Assembly (NCBI RefSeq): GCF_000633635.1
Contig: NZ_AYPQ01000007.1
Location: forward strand, 109,194 to 133,193
Direction: 5' to 3'
DNA: 24,000 bases
Origin: Enterococcus crotali
GTDB taxonomy: Bacteria; Bacillota; Bacilli; Lactobacillales; Enterococcaceae
Shown: positions 7,530 through 22,335 of the stretch, piece by piece
How positions within the stretch are numbered: position 1 is the first letter of the stretch
How the letters are laid out: each line of letters begins with the position of its first letter
Notes under the pieces: model-generated
Databases searched by the model: none
What the model saw: only the letters and a program-made list of their open reading frames with translations
What the model was told of the DNA's origin: nothing
Made by a program: the position numbers and the translations under genes

Positions 7530-7879
7530 CTAATCACTCCTTATAATTGATAAGAAATACGTGAACGACCTTTCAACCAGCGGATACGAGATCGTTCCAT
7601 GTTTAAAAGTGCTGAGGTTAGAGTCTATTTCTTCTTATACTAATCTAACATACTCTTTTATAAGAAGACAATCGCTTTTTAACTAATCTAGTTTTACGGT
7701 CTAGTCATGACTGAAAAAAAATAAATAGGATTGGGAGCAAAAACACCACCCTCATTTCTTTCTATTTTTTAGCCTTGGCTAAACGAGCTTGTCCAACTGT
7801 TTATAGTCATTTCTAAGAAACAGCTTCTAATGAAGATATAATTTAATGATGGAAGTATTAAGAAAAAATAAGATTATTC

Positions 7880-7908
7880 TTGATTTTTTAATTTAAAAAT
7901 TGTAAACT
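7880..7908 (+). promoter_or_regulatory. Predicted sigma-A promoter of oppA
   Basis: -35 TTGATT (7880-7885), a 17-nt spacer, then -10 TAAACT (7903-7908) with TG immediately upstream. This is the best promoter-like match in the 455-nt region upstream of oppA. Confidence 0.45.
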
Positions 7909-7942
7909 ATACCTCAGTACAATAAATAATTATTAAATTCTG

Positions 7943-7957
7943 ATTTTTCAGAAAATA
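7943..7957 (+). promoter_or_regulatory. CodY-box-like operator
   Basis: ATTTTTCAGAAAATA matches the 15-nt CodY consensus AATTTTCWGAAAATT at 13 of 15 positions. It lies between the predicted -10 and the oppA SD (GGGAGG, 7972-7977). Confidence 0.5.
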
Positions 7958-7985
7958 CTTAGGGCATTTTAGGGAGGAAAAAAAA

Positions 7986-9662
7986 ATGAAGTTAAAGAAG
8001 TCATTTGCTTTTGGATTCATCACTTTATTTAGTTTAACACTAGCAGCATGTGGTAATGGCGGCGGAAAAACAGACGATTCAGGCAGCTCGAAATCAGCTG
8101 ACGGAAAGCCTAGCGGAGAACAAATTTTCCGTGTTAATGAATTACAAGAAATGCCAAGTGCTGATTTATCAGTAGCAACAGATCAAATCAGTTTTATTGC
8201 CTTAAACAATGTGTATGAAGGAATCTATCGTTTGAATTTAGATAATGAAGCTGAACCTGCGGGCGCTGCTGAAAAAGCAGAAGTCAGCGAAGACGGAATT
8301 ACTTATAAAATTAAGTTAAACGAAAAAGCTAAATGGACTGATGGCAAACCAGTAAAAGCAGAAGACTATGTCTATGGATGGCAACGAACGGTTGACCCTG
8401 CGACAGCTTCAGAATATGCTTACTTGTATGAATCTGTAAAAAATGGTGCAGATGTCGCTGCAGGTAAAAAAGATAAAGAAGAATTAGGAATCAAAGCAGT
8501 AGGCGATTATGAATTAGAGATTACTTTAGAAAAGGCTACTCCTTATTTTGATTATCTACTAGCATTCCCATCGTTCTTCCCTCAAAGAAAAGATATTGTG
8601 GAAAAATATGGTAAAGATTATGCTGCAAACAGTGAAAATTCAGTTTATAATGGACCATTCGTATTAGACGGATTTGATGGACCTGGAACAGATACAAAAT
8701 GGTCATACAAGAAAAATAAAGAATATTGGGATGCAGATGCTGTAAAATTGGATGAAGTACAGGTGAATGTTGTAAAAGAAGCACCAACTTCATATAATCT
8801 ATTCCAAGACGGACAAGTAGATGATGTTCAATTAACTGGTGAATTAGCACAACAAGCAGCTAACGATCCACAGCTTGTAATTTTAAAAACAGCATCGACT
8901 CAATATATGGAATTAAATCAAATCGATGACAATTCACCATTTAGAAATGAAAACTTAAGAAAAGCTATCTCTTATTCAATCGATCGTAAATCATTGGTTG
9001 AGCAGATCCTAGGTGACGGTTCTGTAGAACCTAAAGGCTTAGTTCCAGCTGATATGTCTAAATCTCCAGATGGAAAAGAAGACTTTACAGAAGCTGCTGA
9101 GGATAAAATTTCTTATGATAAAGACAAAGCAAAAGAATATTGGGAAAAAGCGAAGAAAGAGTTGGGTATCAAAACATTAGATATTGATATCTTATCTTCT
9201 GATGCTGATTCATCTAAGAAAACAGTAGAATATATCCAAGGTGCGATTCAAGATAGCTTAGAAGGAACAAAAGTAACAGTAAGTCCAGTACCATTTGCTG
9301 TCCGTTTAGACCGTTCTAACAAAGGTGACTTTAAAGCAGTTATCGGCGGCTGGGGAGCTGACTATGTAGATCCAAGTAGCTTCTTAGATCTATTCCAGAC
9401 AGGGGTTCCATATAACCGTGGACACTACAGCAATGCTGACTATGACAAAGCATTAAAAGCTGCTTCAACAACCAATGCCAATGATCCTGAAAAACGTTGG
9501 GATAATTTAGTTGATGCAGAGAAAATAATCATGGGTGACATGGGTGTGATTCCACTTTACCAAAAAGCAGAAGCTCACTTACGTGCTGAAAAAGTTAAAG
9601 ATGTTGCTTTCCATCCAGCAGGCGCACAATACGATTATAAATGGACATACATTTCAGAATAA
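7986..9662 (+). CDS. oppA: Oligopeptide ABC transporter substrate-binding lipoprotein (family 5 SBP)
   Basis: 558 aa with a signal peptide and lipobox LTLAAC (Cys22), followed by a Gly/Ser-rich linker. OppA/DppA-like body, next to oppBCDF. Confidence 0.9.
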   Translation: MKLKKSFAFGFITLFSLTLAACGNGGGKTDDSGSSKSADGKPSGEQIFRVNELQEMPSADLSVATDQISFIALNNVYEGIYRLNLDNEAEPAGAAEKAEVSEDGITYKIKLNEKAKWTDGKPVKAEDYVYGWQRTVDPATASEYAYLYESVKNGADVAAGKKDKEELGIKAVGDYELEITLEKATPYFDYLLAFPSFFPQRKDIVEKYGKDYAANSENSVYNGPFVLDGFDGPGTDTKWSYKKNKEYWDADAVKLDEVQVNVVKEAPTSYNLFQDGQVDDVQLTGELAQQAANDPQLVILKTASTQYMELNQIDDNSPFRNENLRKAISYSIDRKSLVEQILGDGSVEPKGLVPADMSKSPDGKEDFTEAAEDKISYDKDKAKEYWEKAKKELGIKTLDIDILSSDADSSKKTVEYIQGAIQDSLEGTKVTVSPVPFAVRLDRSNKGDFKAVIGGWGADYVDPSSFLDLFQTGVPYNRGHYSNADYDKALKAASTTNANDPEKRWDNLVDAEKIIMGDMGVIPLYQKAEAHLRAEKVKDVAFHPAGAQYDYKWTYISE

Positions 9663-9878: not shown

Positions 9879-10226
9879 TCATAAAAAGTAAAATAATAAA
9901 GAAACAATAGAGACAATCAGTAAAATACCTCCAGTTTCAAGCCAGTAAAGCTGATGTGCTTTACCAATCTCTGAAAATGGGATGAATTCTTTTGGTTCAT
10001 TTTTCTTTCTAAAGCGAATATGCATTTTCATAAAACGTTGGAAATTATCAAAAAATCCTGAGGACATGATCCATAAGGCCAAGCCGATAATTAAAAAGAA
10101 GAGTGAAACAATGAAGAAGGTATCAGATACAGAACGGATAGTCAGTGACTGTTTTATTATTAGGTAAGTAAAAATACCGATGCTTGAGACCGCTGAAGTA
10201 ATCAAGGGCCATTTAAAATTTTTCAT
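9879..10226 (-). CDS. Small membrane protein, DUF3899-like
   Basis: 115 aa with three or four hydrophobic segments and an SSGFFDNFQRF...RFRKK motif, which as I recall is typical of DUF3899 proteins. It lies antisense between oppA and oppB. Confidence 0.5.
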   Translation of the reverse strand: MKNFKWPLITSAVSSIGIFTYLIIKQSLTIRSVSDTFFIVSLFFLIIGLALWIMSSGFFDNFQRFMKMHIRFRKKNEPKEFIPFSEIGKAHQLYWLETGGILLIVSIVSLLFYFL

Positions 10227-10307
10227 ATGCTCATCCTTACTTAATTTTCTATCCTTACTTTATCGAAAAAAACTGATGAAGTCAAAATAATCTCGGAGGT
10301 GTCATTC

Positions 10308-11249
10308 TTGAACAGTTTTGGAAAATATTTTCTTAAACGGGTCTTCTTTATGATCATCACATTGTGGCTGATCGCAACGATTACGTTTTTCTTAATGCAA
10401 TTATTACCAGGTACTCCTTATACCAACCAAGAAAAACTTAGTCCAGAAACAATCGCTATGTTGAACAAGCAATCAGGTTTAGATAAACCGGTGATCGTTC
10501 AATATGGAATTTACTTAAAAAATCTGCTAGTGGGCGATTTTGGAATTTCTTTCCAATTTAAAAACCAACCAGTAGCAAAACTTTTAGCAGGCCGTATCGG
10601 ACCTTCAGTACAATTAGGTGCGCAGGCAATCATCTTTGGTACGCTAGTAGGGATTTTACTAGGGATCATTGCAGCGATGCGCCAAAATACATGGGTGGAT
10701 ACATTAGCAACTTTAATGGCAATCTTAGGGCGTTCGATTCCTAACTTTGTTTTTGCGGTATTACTGCAATATATCTTTGCTATGAAATTAAAAGTATTAC
10801 CAATCGCAATGTGGAATGGGTTTGCTTATACGATTTTACCAACGATCGCGTTAGCAATGAGTCCAATGGCCGATTCCGCCAGGTTTATACGAACCGAGAT
10901 GGTCGAAGTTTTACATAGTGACTATGTAGAGTTGGCGCGTGCCAAAGGCTTGAGTCGCTGGCAAGTGGCCGTAAGACATGGACTTAGAAATAGTTTGATT
11001 CCTTTGATTACATTACTTGGTCCATTAGCTGTTGGTTTGATGACTGGATCTTTAGTTGTTGAAAATATTTTTGCTATCCCAGGTATTGGGGAGCAATTTG
11101 TAAAATCGATCATGACCAATGACTACCCAACAATTATGGCAGTAACTATTCTATATTCTGCTTTATTAGTATTTGTAATCTTGATCGTTGATTTACTTTA
11201 TGGATTGATCGATCCAAGAATTCGTGTTTCAGGAGGTGCCAAAGGTTAA
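10308..11249 (+). CDS. oppB: Oligopeptide ABC transporter permease
   Basis: BPD-type permease with the EAA-like loop (SDYVELARAKGLS). I prefer the TTG at 10308, 8 nt after GGAGG (10295-10299). The ORF-track GTG at 10299 overlaps the SD itself. Confidence 0.85.
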   Translation: MNSFGKYFLKRVFFMIITLWLIATITFFLMQLLPGTPYTNQEKLSPETIAMLNKQSGLDKPVIVQYGIYLKNLLVGDFGISFQFKNQPVAKLLAGRIGPSVQLGAQAIIFGTLVGILLGIIAAMRQNTWVDTLATLMAILGRSIPNFVFAVLLQYIFAMKLKVLPIAMWNGFAYTILPTIALAMSPMADSARFIRTEMVEVLHSDYVELARAKGLSRWQVAVRHGLRNSLIPLITLLGPLAVGLMTGSLVVENIFAIPGIGEQFVKSIMTNDYPTIMAVTILYSALLVFVILIVDLLYGLIDPRIRVSGGAKG

Positions 11250-12301
11250 TGGAAACAGTTGACTTAAACAATGTCCCAGAAAAAATCAAAAAGATACCTG
11301 CAAATGACTTCCAGCCTTTGGATACATCAACAACAAAGGAACGTGAACGAATTGCGACACCGTCATTAAGCTTCTTACAAGATTCTTGGCGTCGTTTGAA
11401 AAAAAATAAAGCAGCTGTGATTTCCTTGATTCTTTTAGGGATCATCATCTTTATTTCAATTATTACTATTTGGGTTTCACCTCATGACCCAACCCAACAA
11501 AATGTAGCTTATATCAATTTACCACCGCGTATTCCGATTTTAGACAGTATCAATGGCTTCAATGGAACAGCCACAGTCGCTGGAAAAGTTGTTGATAAAT
11601 ACGCACAAGCCAATGTTCCTGATAATGTAAACTTCTTCCTAGGAACAGACGGATTAGGCCGTGATGTATTGAGCCGTTTATTCATGGGAACACGTATCTC
11701 ATTATTGATCGCATTTATCGCAGCCTTACTTGATATTACGATCGGTGTAACATACGGTTTGATTTCAGGACTATTAGGCGGACGTGTGGATACAGTGATG
11801 CAACGTATCTTAGAAGTTCTTTCAGGAATTCCTAACCTTGTTGTGATGATCTTGATGCTGACTGTTTTTGATCCAGGTATTTTATCAATCGTGTTAGCGA
11901 TGGTTATTACCAACTGGATTTCGATGGCCAGGATCGTTCGGGCTCAGACCTTGAAATTAAAAGATCAAGAGTTCGTTTTAGCCGCCCAAACATTAGGTGA
12001 ATCTCGTTTGAAGATCGCCGTAAAACATATTTTGCCGAATATCTCAAGTGTGATCATCGTTCAAATGATGTTCAGTATTCCATCGGCAATTTTCTTCGAA
12101 GCGTTTCTAAGTTTCATCGGTTTAGGATTAAGACCGCCGACCGCTTCTCTTGGAACATTATTAAATGAAGGATATAAAACGTTCCGTTTCCTTCCATATT
12201 TGATGTGGATTCCTGCCGTAACTTTGTCAGTCGTAATGATTTGTTTCAACTTGTTAGCTGACGGACTACGTGATGCCTTCGATCCTAAGATGAAAGAGTA
12301 G
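11249..12301 (+). CDS. oppC: Oligopeptide ABC transporter permease
   Basis: 350 aa, OppC/DppC-like, with an N-terminal extension followed by six TM segments. The start overlaps the oppB stop (TAATG, 11247-11251). Confidence 0.9.
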   Translation: METVDLNNVPEKIKKIPANDFQPLDTSTTKERERIATPSLSFLQDSWRRLKKNKAAVISLILLGIIIFISIITIWVSPHDPTQQNVAYINLPPRIPILDSINGFNGTATVAGKVVDKYAQANVPDNVNFFLGTDGLGRDVLSRLFMGTRISLLIAFIAALLDITIGVTYGLISGLLGGRVDTVMQRILEVLSGIPNLVVMILMLTVFDPGILSIVLAMVITNWISMARIVRAQTLKLKDQEFVLAAQTLGESRLKIAVKHILPNISSVIIVQMMFSIPSAIFFEAFLSFIGLGLRPPTASLGTLLNEGYKTFRFLPYLMWIPAVTLSVVMICFNLLADGLRDAFDPKMKE

Positions 12302-12306
12302 AGTGA

Positions 12307-13368
12307 ATGACTATGGAAAAAGTATTAGAAGTAAAAGACTTACAGATTTCTTTTGATACGTTTGCTGGAAAAGTAAATGCTATTCGTGGTGTTAGCTTTG
12401 AGCTGTTCAAAGGGGAAACTCTTGCAATCGTAGGAGAATCTGGTAGTGGTAAATCAGTTACTACTAGAAGTATCATGCGATTATTGAGCAGCAATGCAAA
12501 CATCGATAATGGAGAAATTCTGTTTAAAGGTGAAGATATCGTACACAAAACGGAAAAACAAATGCAAACCATTCGTGGGAAAGAAATTGCAATGATTTTC
12601 CAAGATCCAATGACCTCATTGGACCCAACGATGCCGATCGGCAAACAAGTTGCGGAATCGTTGATCAAACACAATAAAGTTTCTAAAAAAGAAGGCTTAG
12701 ATCAAGCATTAGAATTATTAAAATTAGTAGGGATTCCAAACGCTGAAAAACGTTTGAAAAACTATCCTCACCAATTTTCAGGTGGACAACGTCAACGGAT
12801 CGTTATTGCGATCGCTTTGATTTGTTACCCAGAAGTTCTAATTGCAGATGAGCCGACAACAGCCTTGGATGTTACGATCCAAGCGCAAATTTTAGAGCTA
12901 TTAAAAGATTTACAACAAAAAATCAGCACATCGATTATTTTTATCACCCATGATTTAGGAGTGGTAGCCAATGTGGCTGATCGTGTAGCTGTTATGTATG
13001 GCGGACGTTTAGTGGAAGTGGGAACATCAGAAGAGATTTTCTACAATCCACAACATCCATATACATGGGGATTACTTGGTTCTATGCCAACAATGGAAGG
13101 AACGGAAGATAAGCTATATGCGATTCCAGGTTCACCTCCAGATTTGTTAGATCCGCCAAAAGGCGATGCTTTCTATCCGCGTAATGAGTTTGCAATGAAG
13201 ATCGACGCAGAAGAAGCACCACCGTATTTTGAAGTATCACCAACTCATAAAGCTGCAACGTGGTTATTAGCGCCACAAGCGCCAAAAATCACCCCTCCAG
13301 CTGAAATTGTAAGACGTTGGGCAATTTATGCTGAACGCCATAATACGACTGCAGGAGGCGTTAAATAA
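12307..13368 (+). CDS. oppD: Oligopeptide ABC transporter ATP-binding protein
   Basis: Walker A GESGSGKS, signature FSGGQRQR, Walker B LIADEPTTALD, and an OppD-type C-terminal extension. Confidence 0.9.
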   Translation: MTMEKVLEVKDLQISFDTFAGKVNAIRGVSFELFKGETLAIVGESGSGKSVTTRSIMRLLSSNANIDNGEILFKGEDIVHKTEKQMQTIRGKEIAMIFQDPMTSLDPTMPIGKQVAESLIKHNKVSKKEGLDQALELLKLVGIPNAEKRLKNYPHQFSGGQRQRIVIAIALICYPEVLIADEPTTALDVTIQAQILELLKDLQQKISTSIIFITHDLGVVANVADRVAVMYGGRLVEVGTSEEIFYNPQHPYTWGLLGSMPTMEGTEDKLYAIPGSPPDLLDPPKGDAFYPRNEFAMKIDAEEAPPYFEVSPTHKAATWLLAPQAPKITPPAEIVRRWAIYAERHNTTAGGVK

Positions 13369-14327
13369 TGAGTGAAAAAAGAAAAGTACTTTTAGATGTT
13401 AAAGGACTAAAACAATACTTTAACGTTGGGCGCCCTGACGAAGTTAGAGCAGTTGACGACATCAGTTTTCATATCTACGAAGGTGAAACATTTGGACTAG
13501 TAGGAGAATCTGGTAGTGGTAAATCAACAACTGGACGTAGTGTGATCCGTTTATACGATCCGACTGGTGGAGAAATCATTTTCAATGGTGACGATATCAG
13601 TAAAATTCGTTCAAAATCAGGAATGCAAGCATTCCGTCGTGAAGTACAAATGATCTTCCAAGATCCTTATGCTTCATTGAACCCAAGAATGAAAGTCAAC
13701 GATATCATTGCTGAAGGGATTGACATTAACCATTTAGCGAAAGATGCTGCTGAACGTGAAGCTAAGGTCAACGAATTACTAAAAGTCGTTGGACTTGATC
13801 CGAGCCATGGTACACGTTATCCGCATGAATTTTCAGGTGGACAACGTCAACGGATCGGAATCGCCAGAGCCTTAGCTGTTGATCCTCGTTTCATCATCTG
13901 TGATGAGCCGATTTCAGCGTTGGATGTATCGATTCAAGCGCAAGTAGTTAACTTATTGCAAGACTTACAAAAAGATGCTGGTCTGACTTATTTGTTTATT
14001 GCCCATGATTTATCAATGGTAAAACATATAAGTGACCGTATCGGTGTAATGCATAGCGGTAGATTATTGGAAATGGGTTCAAGTGATGATGTGTATAACT
14101 TTGGTGTGCATCCGTATACTGAAAGTTTACTATCAGCTATCCCATTGCCTGATCCAGATTATGAACGGACACGTAAACGTATCGTTTATAAACCACAACC
14201 TGAAGACAATAAAGAACGTAAACTAAGAGAAATCACTCCTGAACATTATGTTTATTGTTCTGAAGACGAAGTTGAAGGGTACCGTAAAAAAATCGAAGAG
14301 AAAAAAGCCAGAGCGAATCACGCATAG
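13368..14327 (+). CDS. oppF: Oligopeptide ABC transporter ATP-binding protein
   Basis: Walker A GESGSGKST, signature FSGGQRQR, Walker B IICDEPISALD. The start overlaps the oppD stop (TAATG, 13366-13370). Confidence 0.9.
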   Translation: MSEKRKVLLDVKGLKQYFNVGRPDEVRAVDDISFHIYEGETFGLVGESGSGKSTTGRSVIRLYDPTGGEIIFNGDDISKIRSKSGMQAFRREVQMIFQDPYASLNPRMKVNDIIAEGIDINHLAKDAAEREAKVNELLKVVGLDPSHGTRYPHEFSGGQRQRIGIARALAVDPRFIICDEPISALDVSIQAQVVNLLQDLQKDAGLTYLFIAHDLSMVKHISDRIGVMHSGRLLEMGSSDDVYNFGVHPYTESLLSAIPLPDPDYERTRKRIVYKPQPEDNKERKLREITPEHYVYCSEDEVEGYRKKIEEKKARANHA

Positions 14328-14346: not shown

Positions 14347-14387
14347 CTAGCTAGGAAAAAGACTATTTTTTCTTAGCTAGAATTTTT
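14347..14387 (+). terminator. Intrinsic terminator of the opp operon
   Basis: A 14-bp stem (CTAGCTAGGAAAAA pairing with TTTTTCTTAGCTAG, one G-U pair) with a 6-nt loop, followed by AATTTTT. Confidence 0.7.
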
Positions 14388-14475: not shown

Positions 14476-15603
14476 ATGAAGGTATTAAAGGCGTATAAAT
14501 ACAGACTTTACCCTACTTCATTGCAAGAGGAGTTCATTAAAAAAACTTTTTCTTGTGTACGGCTTGTGTATAACCTTTTATTACAGGAGAGAATTCAGCT
14601 GTATAAAGAACTGAAAGAAAATCCAGATTTAAAAGTAAAAATGCCAACACCAGCTCAATATAAAAAAGAGTATCCTTGTTTAAAGGAAGTGGATAGTTTA
14701 GCATTGGCAAATGCACAGGTTTACTTGGATCGAGCGTTCAAAAAATTTCATAGAGAAAAAGCAGTTGGTTTTCCTAAGCTAAAGCAAAAGAAAAACGCTG
14801 TTTGCTCCTACACAACGAATAATCAAAATGGTACAATTAAAATCATTGATGAGAAGTATTTAAAAGTGCCTAAGCTAAAATCGTTGATGAAAATGAAGAT
14901 GCATCGTCCAGTAATAGGGAAAATAAAGTCAGCGACAATTTCTTTGACTCCCAGCAATAAGTATTTCGTTTCAATCTTGTGTGAAGAAGAAATTCCGGCA
15001 GTTGAGAAGACGCATTTTGCAATCGGGATCACATTAGGCGCTTCTGAATTTGCTGTATTATCAAATGGCAGACGTTTTGACAATGATAAATATACAAAGG
15101 AATTTGAACGGCGGATCACGAGAGAAGAAAGAAAACTGAGGCGACGTAAAGAAATTGCAAAAATAAAAGGAACAGATCTTTCTCAGCAAAAAAACTACCA
15201 GAAACAAAAAGTGAAAGTTGTAAAAATGCGGGAAAAGTTGATGAATCAACGAATTGATTTTCTAAATAAAATCACGACAGAAATCGTTAGAAAGTATGAC
15301 TTGATTTGTATAGAAGATATTCATCAAGCAGATTTTTATAGAAATAATAAACTACATCGAGGCGTTACGGATGTTTCTTGGGCCTTGTTTGTTTCAAAGT
15401 TAGAATATAAAGCATCGTGGTATAACAAAAGATTGATTAAGGTTTCCGTGTGCCACAAATGTTCTGAACATTCAGATAATACCCGGATAAGTAAACTATT
15501 TTTTCATGAGATAAACGAAAAAAAGGGCAGGCAAGATCCAGAAACAGCGGCCAGTATTCAGGTACTGACACAGGGATTAAAAGAAGCAACTGTCAATGAC
15601 TAA
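14476..15603 (+). CDS. tldR: TnpB-like protein (IS200/IS605 OrfB lineage) with a degenerate RuvC/zinc-finger region; candidate nuclease-dead RNA-guided regulator (TldR-type)
   Basis: 375 aa. The N-terminus (KAYKYRLYPTSLQEEFIKKTFSCVRLVYN) and core are TnpB-like. The RuvC-I motif reads GITLG instead of GIDLG (Thr186, ACA at 15031-15033). RuvC-II Glu is retained (ICIED, Glu280). Only the first CxxC is present (CHKC, residues 326-329). The RuvC-III DRDxNAAxNI motif is degenerate (RQDPETAASIQV). SD GGTGG lies 7 nt before the ATG. No tnpA or IS ends are nearby. Confidence 0.75.
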   Translation: MKVLKAYKYRLYPTSLQEEFIKKTFSCVRLVYNLLLQERIQLYKELKENPDLKVKMPTPAQYKKEYPCLKEVDSLALANAQVYLDRAFKKFHREKAVGFPKLKQKKNAVCSYTTNNQNGTIKIIDEKYLKVPKLKSLMKMKMHRPVIGKIKSATISLTPSNKYFVSILCEEEIPAVEKTHFAIGITLGASEFAVLSNGRRFDNDKYTKEFERRITREERKLRRRKEIAKIKGTDLSQQKNYQKQKVKVVKMREKLMNQRIDFLNKITTEIVRKYDLICIEDIHQADFYRNNKLHRGVTDVSWALFVSKLEYKASWYNKRLIKVSVCHKCSEHSDNTRISKLFFHEINEKKGRQDPETAASIQVLTQGLKEATVND

Positions 15604-15748
15604 GTAAAAAAAACTGTAGGGACTACAGGGTTAGCCTAGGGCATATAAGATAGATATAGCGTTTAGTCGATCATTTGTCTTTTTCTAGGAAATTTCTAGT
15701 TAATAGAAATAGTTCACTAATTATTAGTTGATAAAAAATCAAACTTTG
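15560..15748 (+). ncRNA. Candidate omega-RNA-like guide RNA (scaffold plus short guide); boundaries approximate
   Basis: Stem-loops at 15614-15628, 15685-15710 and 15716-15728 are followed by TAAAAAATCAA (15732-15742), the exact complement of the oppA -35 region (7880-7890). The position is where a TnpB scaffold would be expected to end. There is no direct evidence of transcription, and the 5' end is unknown. Confidence 0.35.
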
Positions 15749-15865
15749 TTCTACTTATTCAAGTAAGTAATCTTCTTGGGTAAATAGAATGAAGTTTTTT
15801 GCCGTCTTTGATGAAATATATAGTACAATAATATTAAGTAAACTGATCCAAAAGGAGGATGATCA

Positions 15866-16651
15866 ATGAGAGAGTATAAAGCACTTGTGTTTTTTGATTT
15901 AGACGGTACATTATTAGGGACAGACTCAAAAATTTCCAAAGAAAACCATCAAGCAATTATGGCGTTGAAGCAAAATAAGATTCTACCACTGATTGCAAGC
16001 GGACGTTCACCAAAAGAAATCAGACAAATCACTACTGGAACTGCAATCGATTCTTATGTAAGTTTGAATGGTCAATTTAATGTGGTTGAAAATCAAGTGG
16101 TTTCAAAGCACCCGATCCCCTTAAAATTGATTCAAGAATTGATGGCGTTTTCTAAAGTACAAGGTCATTCGCTCGCTTGTTACACAGAAAATGACTATGC
16201 TACGCGCTATACAAACGCCAGTATGGAAAAATTGTATCAATTAGATAATGCACCATTGCCCCAAATTTCAAAAGACTTCCACCAAGAAAATGAGATCTAC
16301 ATGCTGTATCTTTTTTCAGAGGACGAAAGCAAAGATCCGCTGTATATAACAGAATTCTCCGATAAGTTGACTTTTTTCAGAGACAGTCCTTACTCGTTGG
16401 CCATCGTATTAAACGGACAATCAAAAAAAGCTGGTATTCAAGAAGTCATAAAAGCATTGGATTTAGTTGGGTTACCAACCTATGCCTTTGGCGATGGCAA
16501 TAACGATCTAGGGATGTTTGAAGCGGTAGAAACAGCCATAGCTATGGATAACGCAGGAGATCATGTAAAGAGCCAAGCAGATTTTATTACAAAGTCTCAT
16601 ATGGATGATGGTATTCGTTTTGCCTTAAAGCATTTTGAATTAATTGATTGA
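15866..16651 (+). CDS. Cof-type HAD-IIB family hydrolase (sugar-phosphatase-like)
   Basis: 261 aa with motif I FFDLDGTLL, motif III/IV ...K..GI...FGDGNNDLGMF. SD AAGGAGG lies upstream. Confidence 0.85.
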   Translation: MREYKALVFFDLDGTLLGTDSKISKENHQAIMALKQNKILPLIASGRSPKEIRQITTGTAIDSYVSLNGQFNVVENQVVSKHPIPLKLIQELMAFSKVQGHSLACYTENDYATRYTNASMEKLYQLDNAPLPQISKDFHQENEIYMLYLFSEDESKDPLYITEFSDKLTFFRDSPYSLAIVLNGQSKKAGIQEVIKALDLVGLPTYAFGDGNNDLGMFEAVETAIAMDNAGDHVKSQADFITKSHMDDGIRFALKHFELID

Positions 16652-21648: not shown

Positions 21649-22335
21649 TTGTTGGTTAGAAAAATTCTTGTTGTGGAAGATGATATAGACTTAAATGAAG
21701 GAATAAAGTTTGTTCTAGAAAATGATACAACTGAGATTTTTCAAGCGTATTCTCTGACAGAAGCAAAAAAACAAATTAATCAAACATTCGATTTGATACT
21801 ACTTGATATCAACTTACCAGATGGAAATGGTATTGAATTTTGTAAAATAGTCAAACTTCGTTCAAGTAATAGTCCAGTTATTTTTATTAGTGCAAATGAT
21901 ACTGATATAGATGTTATTCGTGGATTAGAATTAGGAGGAGATGACTATATCATAAAACCCTTTAATTTAATGGTGCTCAGAGCAAGAGTGGAAACGGTAA
22001 TTAAAAGATACCATACTCCTATTACTGATGAAAATTATAGTGATCAAAATTATTGTTTTGATTTTGAGACAATGAATTATACTTGCAAAGGACAGGCTGT
22101 ATTTTTAAGTAATGCAGAGCAAAAATTATTAAAAGTATTAGTTAGTAATAGAGGGCAAATAGTGCAAAAAGAAAAGATAATTGAGTTTGTCTGGGGAATA
22201 GATGGAGATTATGTTGAAGAGAACGCTTTGGCGGTTGTAATTAAACGGCTTCGAAAAAAATTGGAAATGGATTCTGGCTCAAAAAATATTAAGAGCATTT
22301 ATGGCATTGGCTATAAATGGGAGAATTTTGAATGA
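21649..22335 (+). CDS. OmpR/PhoB-family response regulator
   Basis: Receiver domain (ILVVEDD, LLDINLPDGNG, IKPF) plus a winged-helix output domain (LLKVLVSNRGQIVQKEKI...GIGYKW). TTG start 6 nt after GAGGTG. Confidence 0.85.
   Translation: MLVRKILVVEDDIDLNEGIKFVLENDTTEIFQAYSLTEAKKQINQTFDLILLDINLPDGNGIEFCKIVKLRSSNSPVIFISANDTDIDVIRGLELGGDDYIIKPFNLMVLRARVETVIKRYHTPITDENYSDQNYCFDFETMNYTCKGQAVFLSNAEQKLLKVLVSNRGQIVQKEKIIEFVWGIDGDYVEENALAVVIKRLRKKLEMDSGSKNIKSIYGIGYKWENFE

Follow-up and report, generated by a model that had tools for sequence, protein, structure and literature searches.

An oppF-associated TldR locus in Enterococcus crotali: a probable guide-RNA gene and its predicted site upstream of oppA

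The best described relative of the locus studied here is the oppF-associated TldR-gRNA system of E. faecalis (Efa1TldR / V583; Wiegand et al. 2023, bioRxiv 10.1101/2023.11.30.569447; Xiao et al. 2026, bioRxiv 10.64898/2026.09.22.753285). For this orthologue the RNA boundaries, the binding of TldR and gRNA (RIP-seq, ChIP-seq), the TAM and the seed have been established. Its guide, for which RIP-seq gives 9 nt and V583 RNA-seq about 11 nt, forms a 9-bp heteroduplex. The TAM is TTTAA, as determined by cryo-EM and ChIP-seq, and the target string TAATTATTT lies downstream of the oppA transcription start (Wiegand 2023; Xiao 2026). This start is placed 7 bp downstream of the predicted -10 element and upstream of the TldR target (Xiao 2026). 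Upon overexpression, oppA is repressed about 40-fold in a guide-dependent manner (Wiegand 2023; Xiao 2026). When tldR-gRNA was deleted in V583, oppA was not derepressed under laboratory conditions, and repression was seen only on overexpression. In heterologous assays, guide swaps retarget TldR repression (published TldR work).

We analysed a stretch of 24,000 nucleotides from Enterococcus crotali, referred to as the window, together with 16 orthologous loci from the E. faecalis species group and its relatives, all of which carry the same guide and the same target position. A preliminary description of the window had proposed an 11-mer at 15732-15742 as a guide against the -35 region of oppA. 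With a probability of roughly 93%, we read 15604-15800 instead as the guide-RNA gene of an oppF-associated TldR, composed of scaffold, short guide, linker and terminator, that represses oppA via a TTTAA-flanked site, its function being assigned by orthology.

The opp locus and its TnpB-like gene

The gene under presumed control, oppA (7986-9662, plus strand), encodes the substrate-binding protein (PF00496 SBP_bac_5, E 1e-76; OppA-type binding proteins in NCBIfam). It is followed by an antisense gene with a Pfam DUF3899 domain (9879-10226, minus strand) and by oppB (10299-11249), oppC (11249-12301), oppD (12307-13368) and oppF (13368-14327) on the plus strand, with the Pfam domains BPD_transp_1, OppC_N and ABC_tran plus oligo_HPY. 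The opp gene order is the same in loci L014-L017 and corresponds, down to the antisense DUF3899 gene, to that in the literature on oppF-associated TldRs, V583 included (Wiegand 2023; Xiao 2026). Directly 3' of oppF lies tldR (14476-15603, plus strand, 375 aa), and a gene for a HAD hydrolase, assigned by domain search (15866-16651, plus strand), comes after tldR-gRNA. This synteny is shared by the 16 other loci.

Between the oppF stop and the tldR start, a terminator-like hairpin of 15 pairs is followed by a T-rich tail (14347-14380). It suggests that tldR-gRNA is transcribed at least partly independently, or through attenuated read-through, either of which would fit the lower TldR expression reported for V583.

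The tldR product was identified as TnpB-like by PF12323 (HTH_OrfB_IS605, E 9e-19) and PF01385 (OrfB_IS605, E 1e-13), by a score of 209 bits against the NCBIfam model guided_TnpB (cutoff 100) and by its match to ISDra2 TnpB (E 2e-49). Against IS200_TnpB it reached 330 bits, under the 425 cutoff of that model. The Pfam search gave no match to PF07282, which is present in active relatives, and no Zn-ribbon domain. Aligned to E. cecorum TnpB, the RuvC I motif GIDLG has become GITLG, with the aspartate replaced by T186, E280 of RuvC II is kept, and DRDINA of RuvC III reads QDPETA, where E356 replaces the aspartate before xNA. The aspartate before xNA is taken as the catalytic one of the DRD motif, as in TnpB and Cas12f. 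Of the CxxC motifs present in E. cecorum TnpB, TldR lacks the second through a deletion. The preliminary description had called 14476-15603 a nuclease-dead TnpB derivative beside oppF, and the altered RuvC I and III residues and the lost CxxC bear this out. No Y1 transposase gene lies adjacent to tldR in the window, in contrast to the active E. cecorum copies, nor were transposon ends found there. A search of the PDB with TldR returned no TldR structure, the best matches being ISDra2 TnpB and designed nucleases.

The probable guide-RNA gene

An Rfam scan of the RNA 3' of tldR returned a full-length match (model positions 1-122) to RF02841, Ref70, over 15608-15729 with 135 bits (gathering score 115). 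The scaffold, 110 nt long, occupies 15608-15717 on the plus strand and ends with ...ATAGTTCAC. It is omega-RNA-derived, as judged by the Rfam match, by covariation and by homology to the right ends of active elements, so the suggestion of an omega-RNA-type scaffold made in the preliminary description was correct. RNAalifold, run on 16 loci, yielded 29 consensus pairs, 11 of them with compensatory changes.

The chain of three hairpins proposed previously, at coordinates which we could confirm for each palindrome, stands in part. Two stems are conserved in the 16-locus consensus, CTGTAG-GGA-CTACAG (15614-15628) and ATTTCTA/TAGAAAT (15692-15698 / 15704-15710), the second with compensatory changes. 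The local palindrome CTAGGAAATTTCTAG forms no stem; its CTAGG instead pairs long-range with CCTAGGG at 15635-15641, a pairing that shows two compensatory changes. The third palindrome, ACTAAT-T-ATTAGT (15716-15728), was rejected as a scaffold hairpin, being the guide itself together with the preceding AC, the last two bases of the scaffold. It could nevertheless fold on itself, and a guide stem-loop has been reported in the TldR-gRNA binary complex (published TldR work on the E. faecalis orthologue).

The gene ends with an intrinsic terminator (15741-15800, plus strand), a hairpin at 15741-15797 followed by six T residues at 15795-15800. The hairpin has a minimum free energy of -23.1 kcal/mol (z -5.3), and none of 200 shuffled sequences was equally stable. 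A hairpin with a T-run is found at the equivalent place in 16 of the 17 loci, with unrelated sequences in the divergent ones, and a 'predicted gRNA terminator' is mentioned by Xiao 2026. Guide and terminator are separated by an A-rich linker of 12-14 nt.

Just past the terminator, at least 10 of 13 close loci keep TATAGTACAAT (15819-15829), probably the -10 region of the HAD hydrolase promoter. The same element accounts for a 10-nt same-strand match, AGTACAATAA, between 15822 and 7916.

The boundary between scaffold and guide was read from three active IS200/IS605 copies of E. cecorum. The copies are identical through ...GTAGTTCAC and diverge at the next base, while their left ends adjoin TTTAA. 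In the TnpB family of IS200/IS605 elements, the flank after the right end serves as the guide. Since ...TAGTTCAC, with which the E. cecorum elements end, stops at 15717 in the window, and since these elements are preceded by TTTAA, the junction falls at 15717|15718, with the guide starting at 15718 and TTTAA as TAM. The guide predicted from these landmarks, directly after ...TAGTTCAC, has the core TAATTATTA (15718-15726) and extends to at most 11 nt, TAATTATTAGT (15718-15728, plus strand); junction, conservation and a TAM-flanked target all agree with this placement.

The core follows CAC in all 17 loci, at TldR identities of 61-92%, or 61-89% for the 16 orthologues in the protein search, with one single change, at position 8 in L006. 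Conservation drops from position 10 onward, and further downstream the most divergent loci carry unrelated sequence. The guide also falls inside the unpaired 3' tail of the Ref70 model, whose last 13 matched nucleotides, CUAAUUAUUAGUU, are unpaired.

We conclude that the TldR guide RNA, scaffold and guide together, is what Rfam files under Ref70 as a plain Enterococcus sRNA. Neither Ref70 nor Rfam is mentioned in Wiegand 2023 or Xiao 2026. The names of the Ref-numbered sRNAs go back to Innocenti et al. 2015 (PMC4408782), and these RNAs were discussed as likely trans-acting regulators; Ref70 does not appear by name in the main text of that paper.

A set of metagenome contigs sharing the 5' scaffold stem AACTGTAGGGACTACAGGG (L021-L032) holds mostly other TnpB omega-RNAs, which end in ...GTAGTTCAC or ...GGTTCAA and continue into unrelated flanks. 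The TAATTATTA guide of the TldR loci recurs in two of these contigs, L025 and L028.

The site in the oppA leader and the -35 complementarity

The predicted TldR target lies on the minus strand at 7924-7932, where the non-target strand reads 5'-TAATTATTT-3', matching the published string. The TAM, 5'-TTTAA-3', adjoins it on the promoter-distal side (7933-7937, minus strand); it is invariant in 17 of 17 loci and is also the left-end flank of the E. cecorum copies. The guide is complementary to plus-strand 7925-7932 over 8 bp, positions 1-8 being perfect, and position 9 (7924) gives an A:A mismatch. All 17 loci carry, on the minus strand, TTTAA followed by TAATTATT, placed 59-64 bp upstream of the ATG of oppA. 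The guide matches its target at 9 of 9 positions in L011, L014 and L015, at 8 of 9 in thirteen loci and at 7 of 9 in L006. In the 24-kb window this 13-mer, TTTAA+TAATTATT (7925-7937, minus strand), is unique, and between 1e-4 and 1e-3 hits to a TAM plus 8 nt would be expected by chance in the oppA leader.

Guide-target covariation was sought among divergent TldRs of the E. faecium, E. cecorum and E. casseliflavus types. The genome scan gave loci of the E. faecalis-group clade only, and the matches listed by the protein search were taken up by E. cecorum TnpBs. With a guide that does not vary among the 17 loci, the support comes from conservation and TAM adjacency, not from true guide-target covariation.

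Position 9 of the guide, A9, is invariant, although it faces an A:A mismatch in 14 of the 17 loci and pairs only in L011, L014 and L015. Pairing of A9 with T1 within the guide's own hairpin may explain its conservation. Most close relatives show a further match to the target at guide positions 11-13 (TTG), suggestive of a remnant of a once longer guide.

The target is part of a quasi-palindrome (7922-7937), and the plus strand at 7927-7935 reads TAATTATTA, identical to the guide at 9 of 9 positions. We rejected this plus-strand site since its 5' flank is ATAAA rather than TTTAA, and the minus strand has the cognate TAM in all loci. In L015 (3246-3398) the site TTTAATAATTATTAAA is a perfect 16-bp palindrome, so that TAM and a 9/9 target are present there on both strands. 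The window contains only one other near-match to TAM and target, TTTAATAATTTTT (22121-22133, minus strand), which differs at a single base, seed position 6, and falls within a coding region (21649-22335); we regard a TldR site there as unlikely.

The 11-mer that had been put forward as guide, TAAAAAATCAA (15732-15742, plus strand), is indeed the exact reverse complement of TTGATTTTTTA at 7880-7890. Each sequence occurs once in the window, and the pair is the longest reverse-complement word between 15604-15865 and 7530-7985, as had been claimed from inspection by eye. This complementarity could mean that 15732-15742 is a functional guide, or a second, lineage-specific guide on an untrimmed precursor, with TldR at the oppA -35 box occluding RNA polymerase. 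Such a reading gains from the uniqueness of the match, from its overlap with a conserved and probably genuine -35 hexamer, from a TTTAA that stands 2 nt beyond the match on the minus strand, and from reports of some oppF-TldR homologues with guides nearer 16 nt and promoter targets on either strand.

Its position in the transcript, however, argues otherwise. The 11-mer is separated from the junction by 14 nt and does not adjoin the scaffold; it is made up of A-rich linker (+15 to +25 after the junction) and the two opening bases of the terminator stem. Both the published 9-11-nt guide and the Ref70 model end 5' of it, and since the Ref70 match ends at 15729, the catalogued sRNA stops before it. 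The flank of the 7880-7890 site on the minus strand is TAAAT, as the preliminary description had noted, and not TTTAA. Using the offset TTTAA (minus strand, 7893-7897) as TAM, with a guide from 15730, would place mismatches at seed positions 1-2, again without contiguity with the scaffold, and this register was discarded.

The comparison across loci points the same way. Complementarity between the 11-mer and the local -35 region is complete (11/11) in the window alone; it amounts to 10/11 in L002 and L007 and to 6-9/11 in the remaining 14 loci (8-9/11 in nine loci; 6-7/11 in L008 and the divergent L015-L017). Of the 16 orthologous loci, 14 have thus lost the complementarity while their -35 box does not vary, and the 11-mer spans a stretch of the linker that varies by indels. 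A shared word of at least 11 bases arose in 21.9% of 2000 dinucleotide-preserving shuffles of both regions (p ~0.22), in agreement with the earlier estimate of a few tenths, and 15 of 100 other 456-nt pieces of the window share at least 11 bases with 15604-15865.

We conclude that the complementarity is a chance match between two A/T-rich, low-complexity stretches, and consider a guide function of 15732-15742 extremely improbable. The guide starts at 15718, its site is 7924-7937 rather than the -35 box, and the 11-mer does not covary with oppA promoters; a guide mapping elsewhere and a lack of such covariation were two outcomes that the preliminary description itself had named as speaking against its proposal.

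Promoter context and predicted repression of oppA

The hexamer TTGATT (7880-7885, plus strand), suggested previously as the -35 element of oppA, is probably that element. The block TTCTTGATTTTTT is invariant in 17 of 17 loci, as is TTGATTTTTT of the -35 region, and the call rests on this conservation together with the published description of the E. faecalis start site. The putative -10 hexamer, TAAACT (7903-7908, plus strand), is spaced 17 bp from TTGATT and lies in GTA[A/C]ACTATA, nearly invariant among the 17 loci. A simple sigma-70 scan called no plus-strand promoter upstream of oppA, because TTGATT/TAAACT matches at only 8 of 12 positions. TACAAT (7918-7923) was ruled out as -10 element, as other loci read CACAAT or GCAAT at this place.

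From these elements, transcription of oppA would be expected to start near 7915. The target with its TAM (7924-7937), about 44 bp downstream of the -35 box, would then lie in the early transcribed region, with the TldR complex at approximately +10 to +23 and the TAM promoter-distal.

Next to the TAM stands the palindrome ATTTTTCAGAAAATA (7943-7957, plus strand), a 13/15 match to AATTTTCWGAAAATT. The latter is the CodY box consensus, which makes ATTTTTCAGAAAATA a candidate CodY site. In the window alone the match is not significant (2 hits versus 0.84 expected). The block TTCTGAnTTTTCAGAAAA (7938-7957), which adjoins the TAM and holds ATTTTTCAGAAAATA, is conserved in 17 of 17 loci. The CodY-like palindrome may be a second operator, bound by a protein and outside the gRNA system. 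Since the target stands inside a fully conserved block with this palindrome, part of the target conservation may have other causes.

One could go further and regard the oppA leader as a composite operator, where the TldR site and the CodY-like box would join RNA-guided and nutritional protein control, and where A9 of the guide would be kept for an autoinhibitory hairpin and not for pairing. We consider this combined idea rather doubtful. Neither the composite operator nor this role of A9 is proposed in Wiegand 2023 or Xiao 2026, and CodY is not mentioned in Xiao 2026.

The invariant block including the CodY-like palindrome also bears on a different view of the locus. Ref70 might be an ordinary trans-acting sRNA, or a 3'-UTR fragment unrelated to TldR, and TTTAATAATTATT upstream of oppA a protein operator that matches the guide by coincidence. 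The plain sRNA entry in Rfam, the discussion of Ref sRNAs as likely trans-acting regulators (PMC4408782) and the lack of effect of the native tldR-gRNA deletion in V583 would all be compatible with it. Yet the RNA is homologous to the omega-RNAs of active TnpBs up to the exact right-end boundary, TAM and target are present together in 17 of 17 loci, and their occurrence in the oppA leader has the low chance expectation given above. For the orthologue, moreover, RIP-seq, ChIP-seq, cryo-EM and guide-dependent 40-fold repression have been published. An unrelated sRNA with a coincidental match therefore appears most improbable.

Under the preferred reading of a TldR guide RNA, and with expression, trimming, binding and repression in E. 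crotali taken over from E. faecalis by orthology, the following sequence of events would be expected. The tldR-gRNA transcript would end at the terminator (15741-15800). Its 3' tail would be trimmed to the 9-11 nt protected by TldR, whereby the linker and the base of the terminator, and with them the 11-mer, would be removed. The TldR-gRNA complex would recognise the TAM 5'-TTTAA-3' on the minus strand (7933-7937), and the guide TAATTATTA(GT) would pair with plus-strand 7925-7932, about +10 to +23 relative to the predicted oppA start. The bound complex would then block RNA polymerase at open-complex formation, initiation, promoter escape or early elongation, resulting in repression of oppA. 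The preliminary description had likewise expected the system to act on the region upstream of oppA as a repressor; the TAM-flanked site in 17 of 17 loci and the published orthologue lend support to this part of it.

Comparison with known systems

The system in the window is an orthologue of the published oppF-associated TldR-gRNA; it is already known and represents no new kind. All features that define oppF-associated TldR-gRNAs and can be addressed by sequence were found here: the sequence relationships, the scaffold/guide junction, the conservation, the TAM adjacency and the terminator are direct observations in the window and its orthologues. By sequence, the E. faecalis system described in the literature is now extended to 17 loci in which guide and target position are the same, and the orphan Rfam family Ref70 is linked to the TldR guide RNA. 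The analysis also carries a correction, in that searching for the longest complementary word, or searching by eye, misleads the annotation of TldR guides in A/T-rich intergenic DNA of Enterococcus. As a rule, the guide begins at the base after the conserved ...TAGTTCAC, and the target must carry TTTAA.

With the E. faecalis TldR-gRNA, the window shares the order oppA, antisense DUF3899 gene, oppBCDF, tldR, gRNA and terminator, as well as the TAM TTTAA, the target TAATTATTT, a guide of 9-11 nt, a target downstream of the inferred transcription start and a guide able to fold on itself. It differs in belonging to another Enterococcus species, known here by sequence and compared by published description. 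To Ref70 (RF02841) the match is full-length, but the Rfam entry describes a plain sRNA where we find TldR scaffold and guide.

The E. cecorum IS200/IS605 TnpBs (L018-L020) are 53-54% identical to TldR among the matches listed (56% in the alignment), and their elements share with the window the 5' scaffold stem, the terminal ...TAGTTCAC and the TAM TTTAA. The active E. cecorum and ISDra2 elements, in contrast, keep the DED RuvC residues and the zinc ribbon, tnpA and defined ends; they are multi-copy, mobile and DNA-cutting and use variable flanks as guides, whereas tldR of the window, a nuclease-dead gene, occurs as a single copy in conserved synteny and has a fixed guide. Of the three E. cecorum copies, two retain tnpA. 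The third, L018 (900-1560, compared with L019 and L020), has lost the start of tnpA to a 41-bp deletion and has no Y1 transposase gene call, while its tnpB and ends are intact; such a copy lacking tnpA is an intermediate that one would expect in the course of domestication.

More distantly, the fliC_P-associated TldRs of Enterobacteriaceae prophages resemble the present system in that RNA-guided, nuclease-dead binding at or near a promoter blocks RNA polymerase, but they use 16-nt guides and target host fliC. The same likeness holds for CRISPRi with dCas9 or dCas12, which differs in being engineered, with guides of at least 20 nt and PAMs instead of TAMs.
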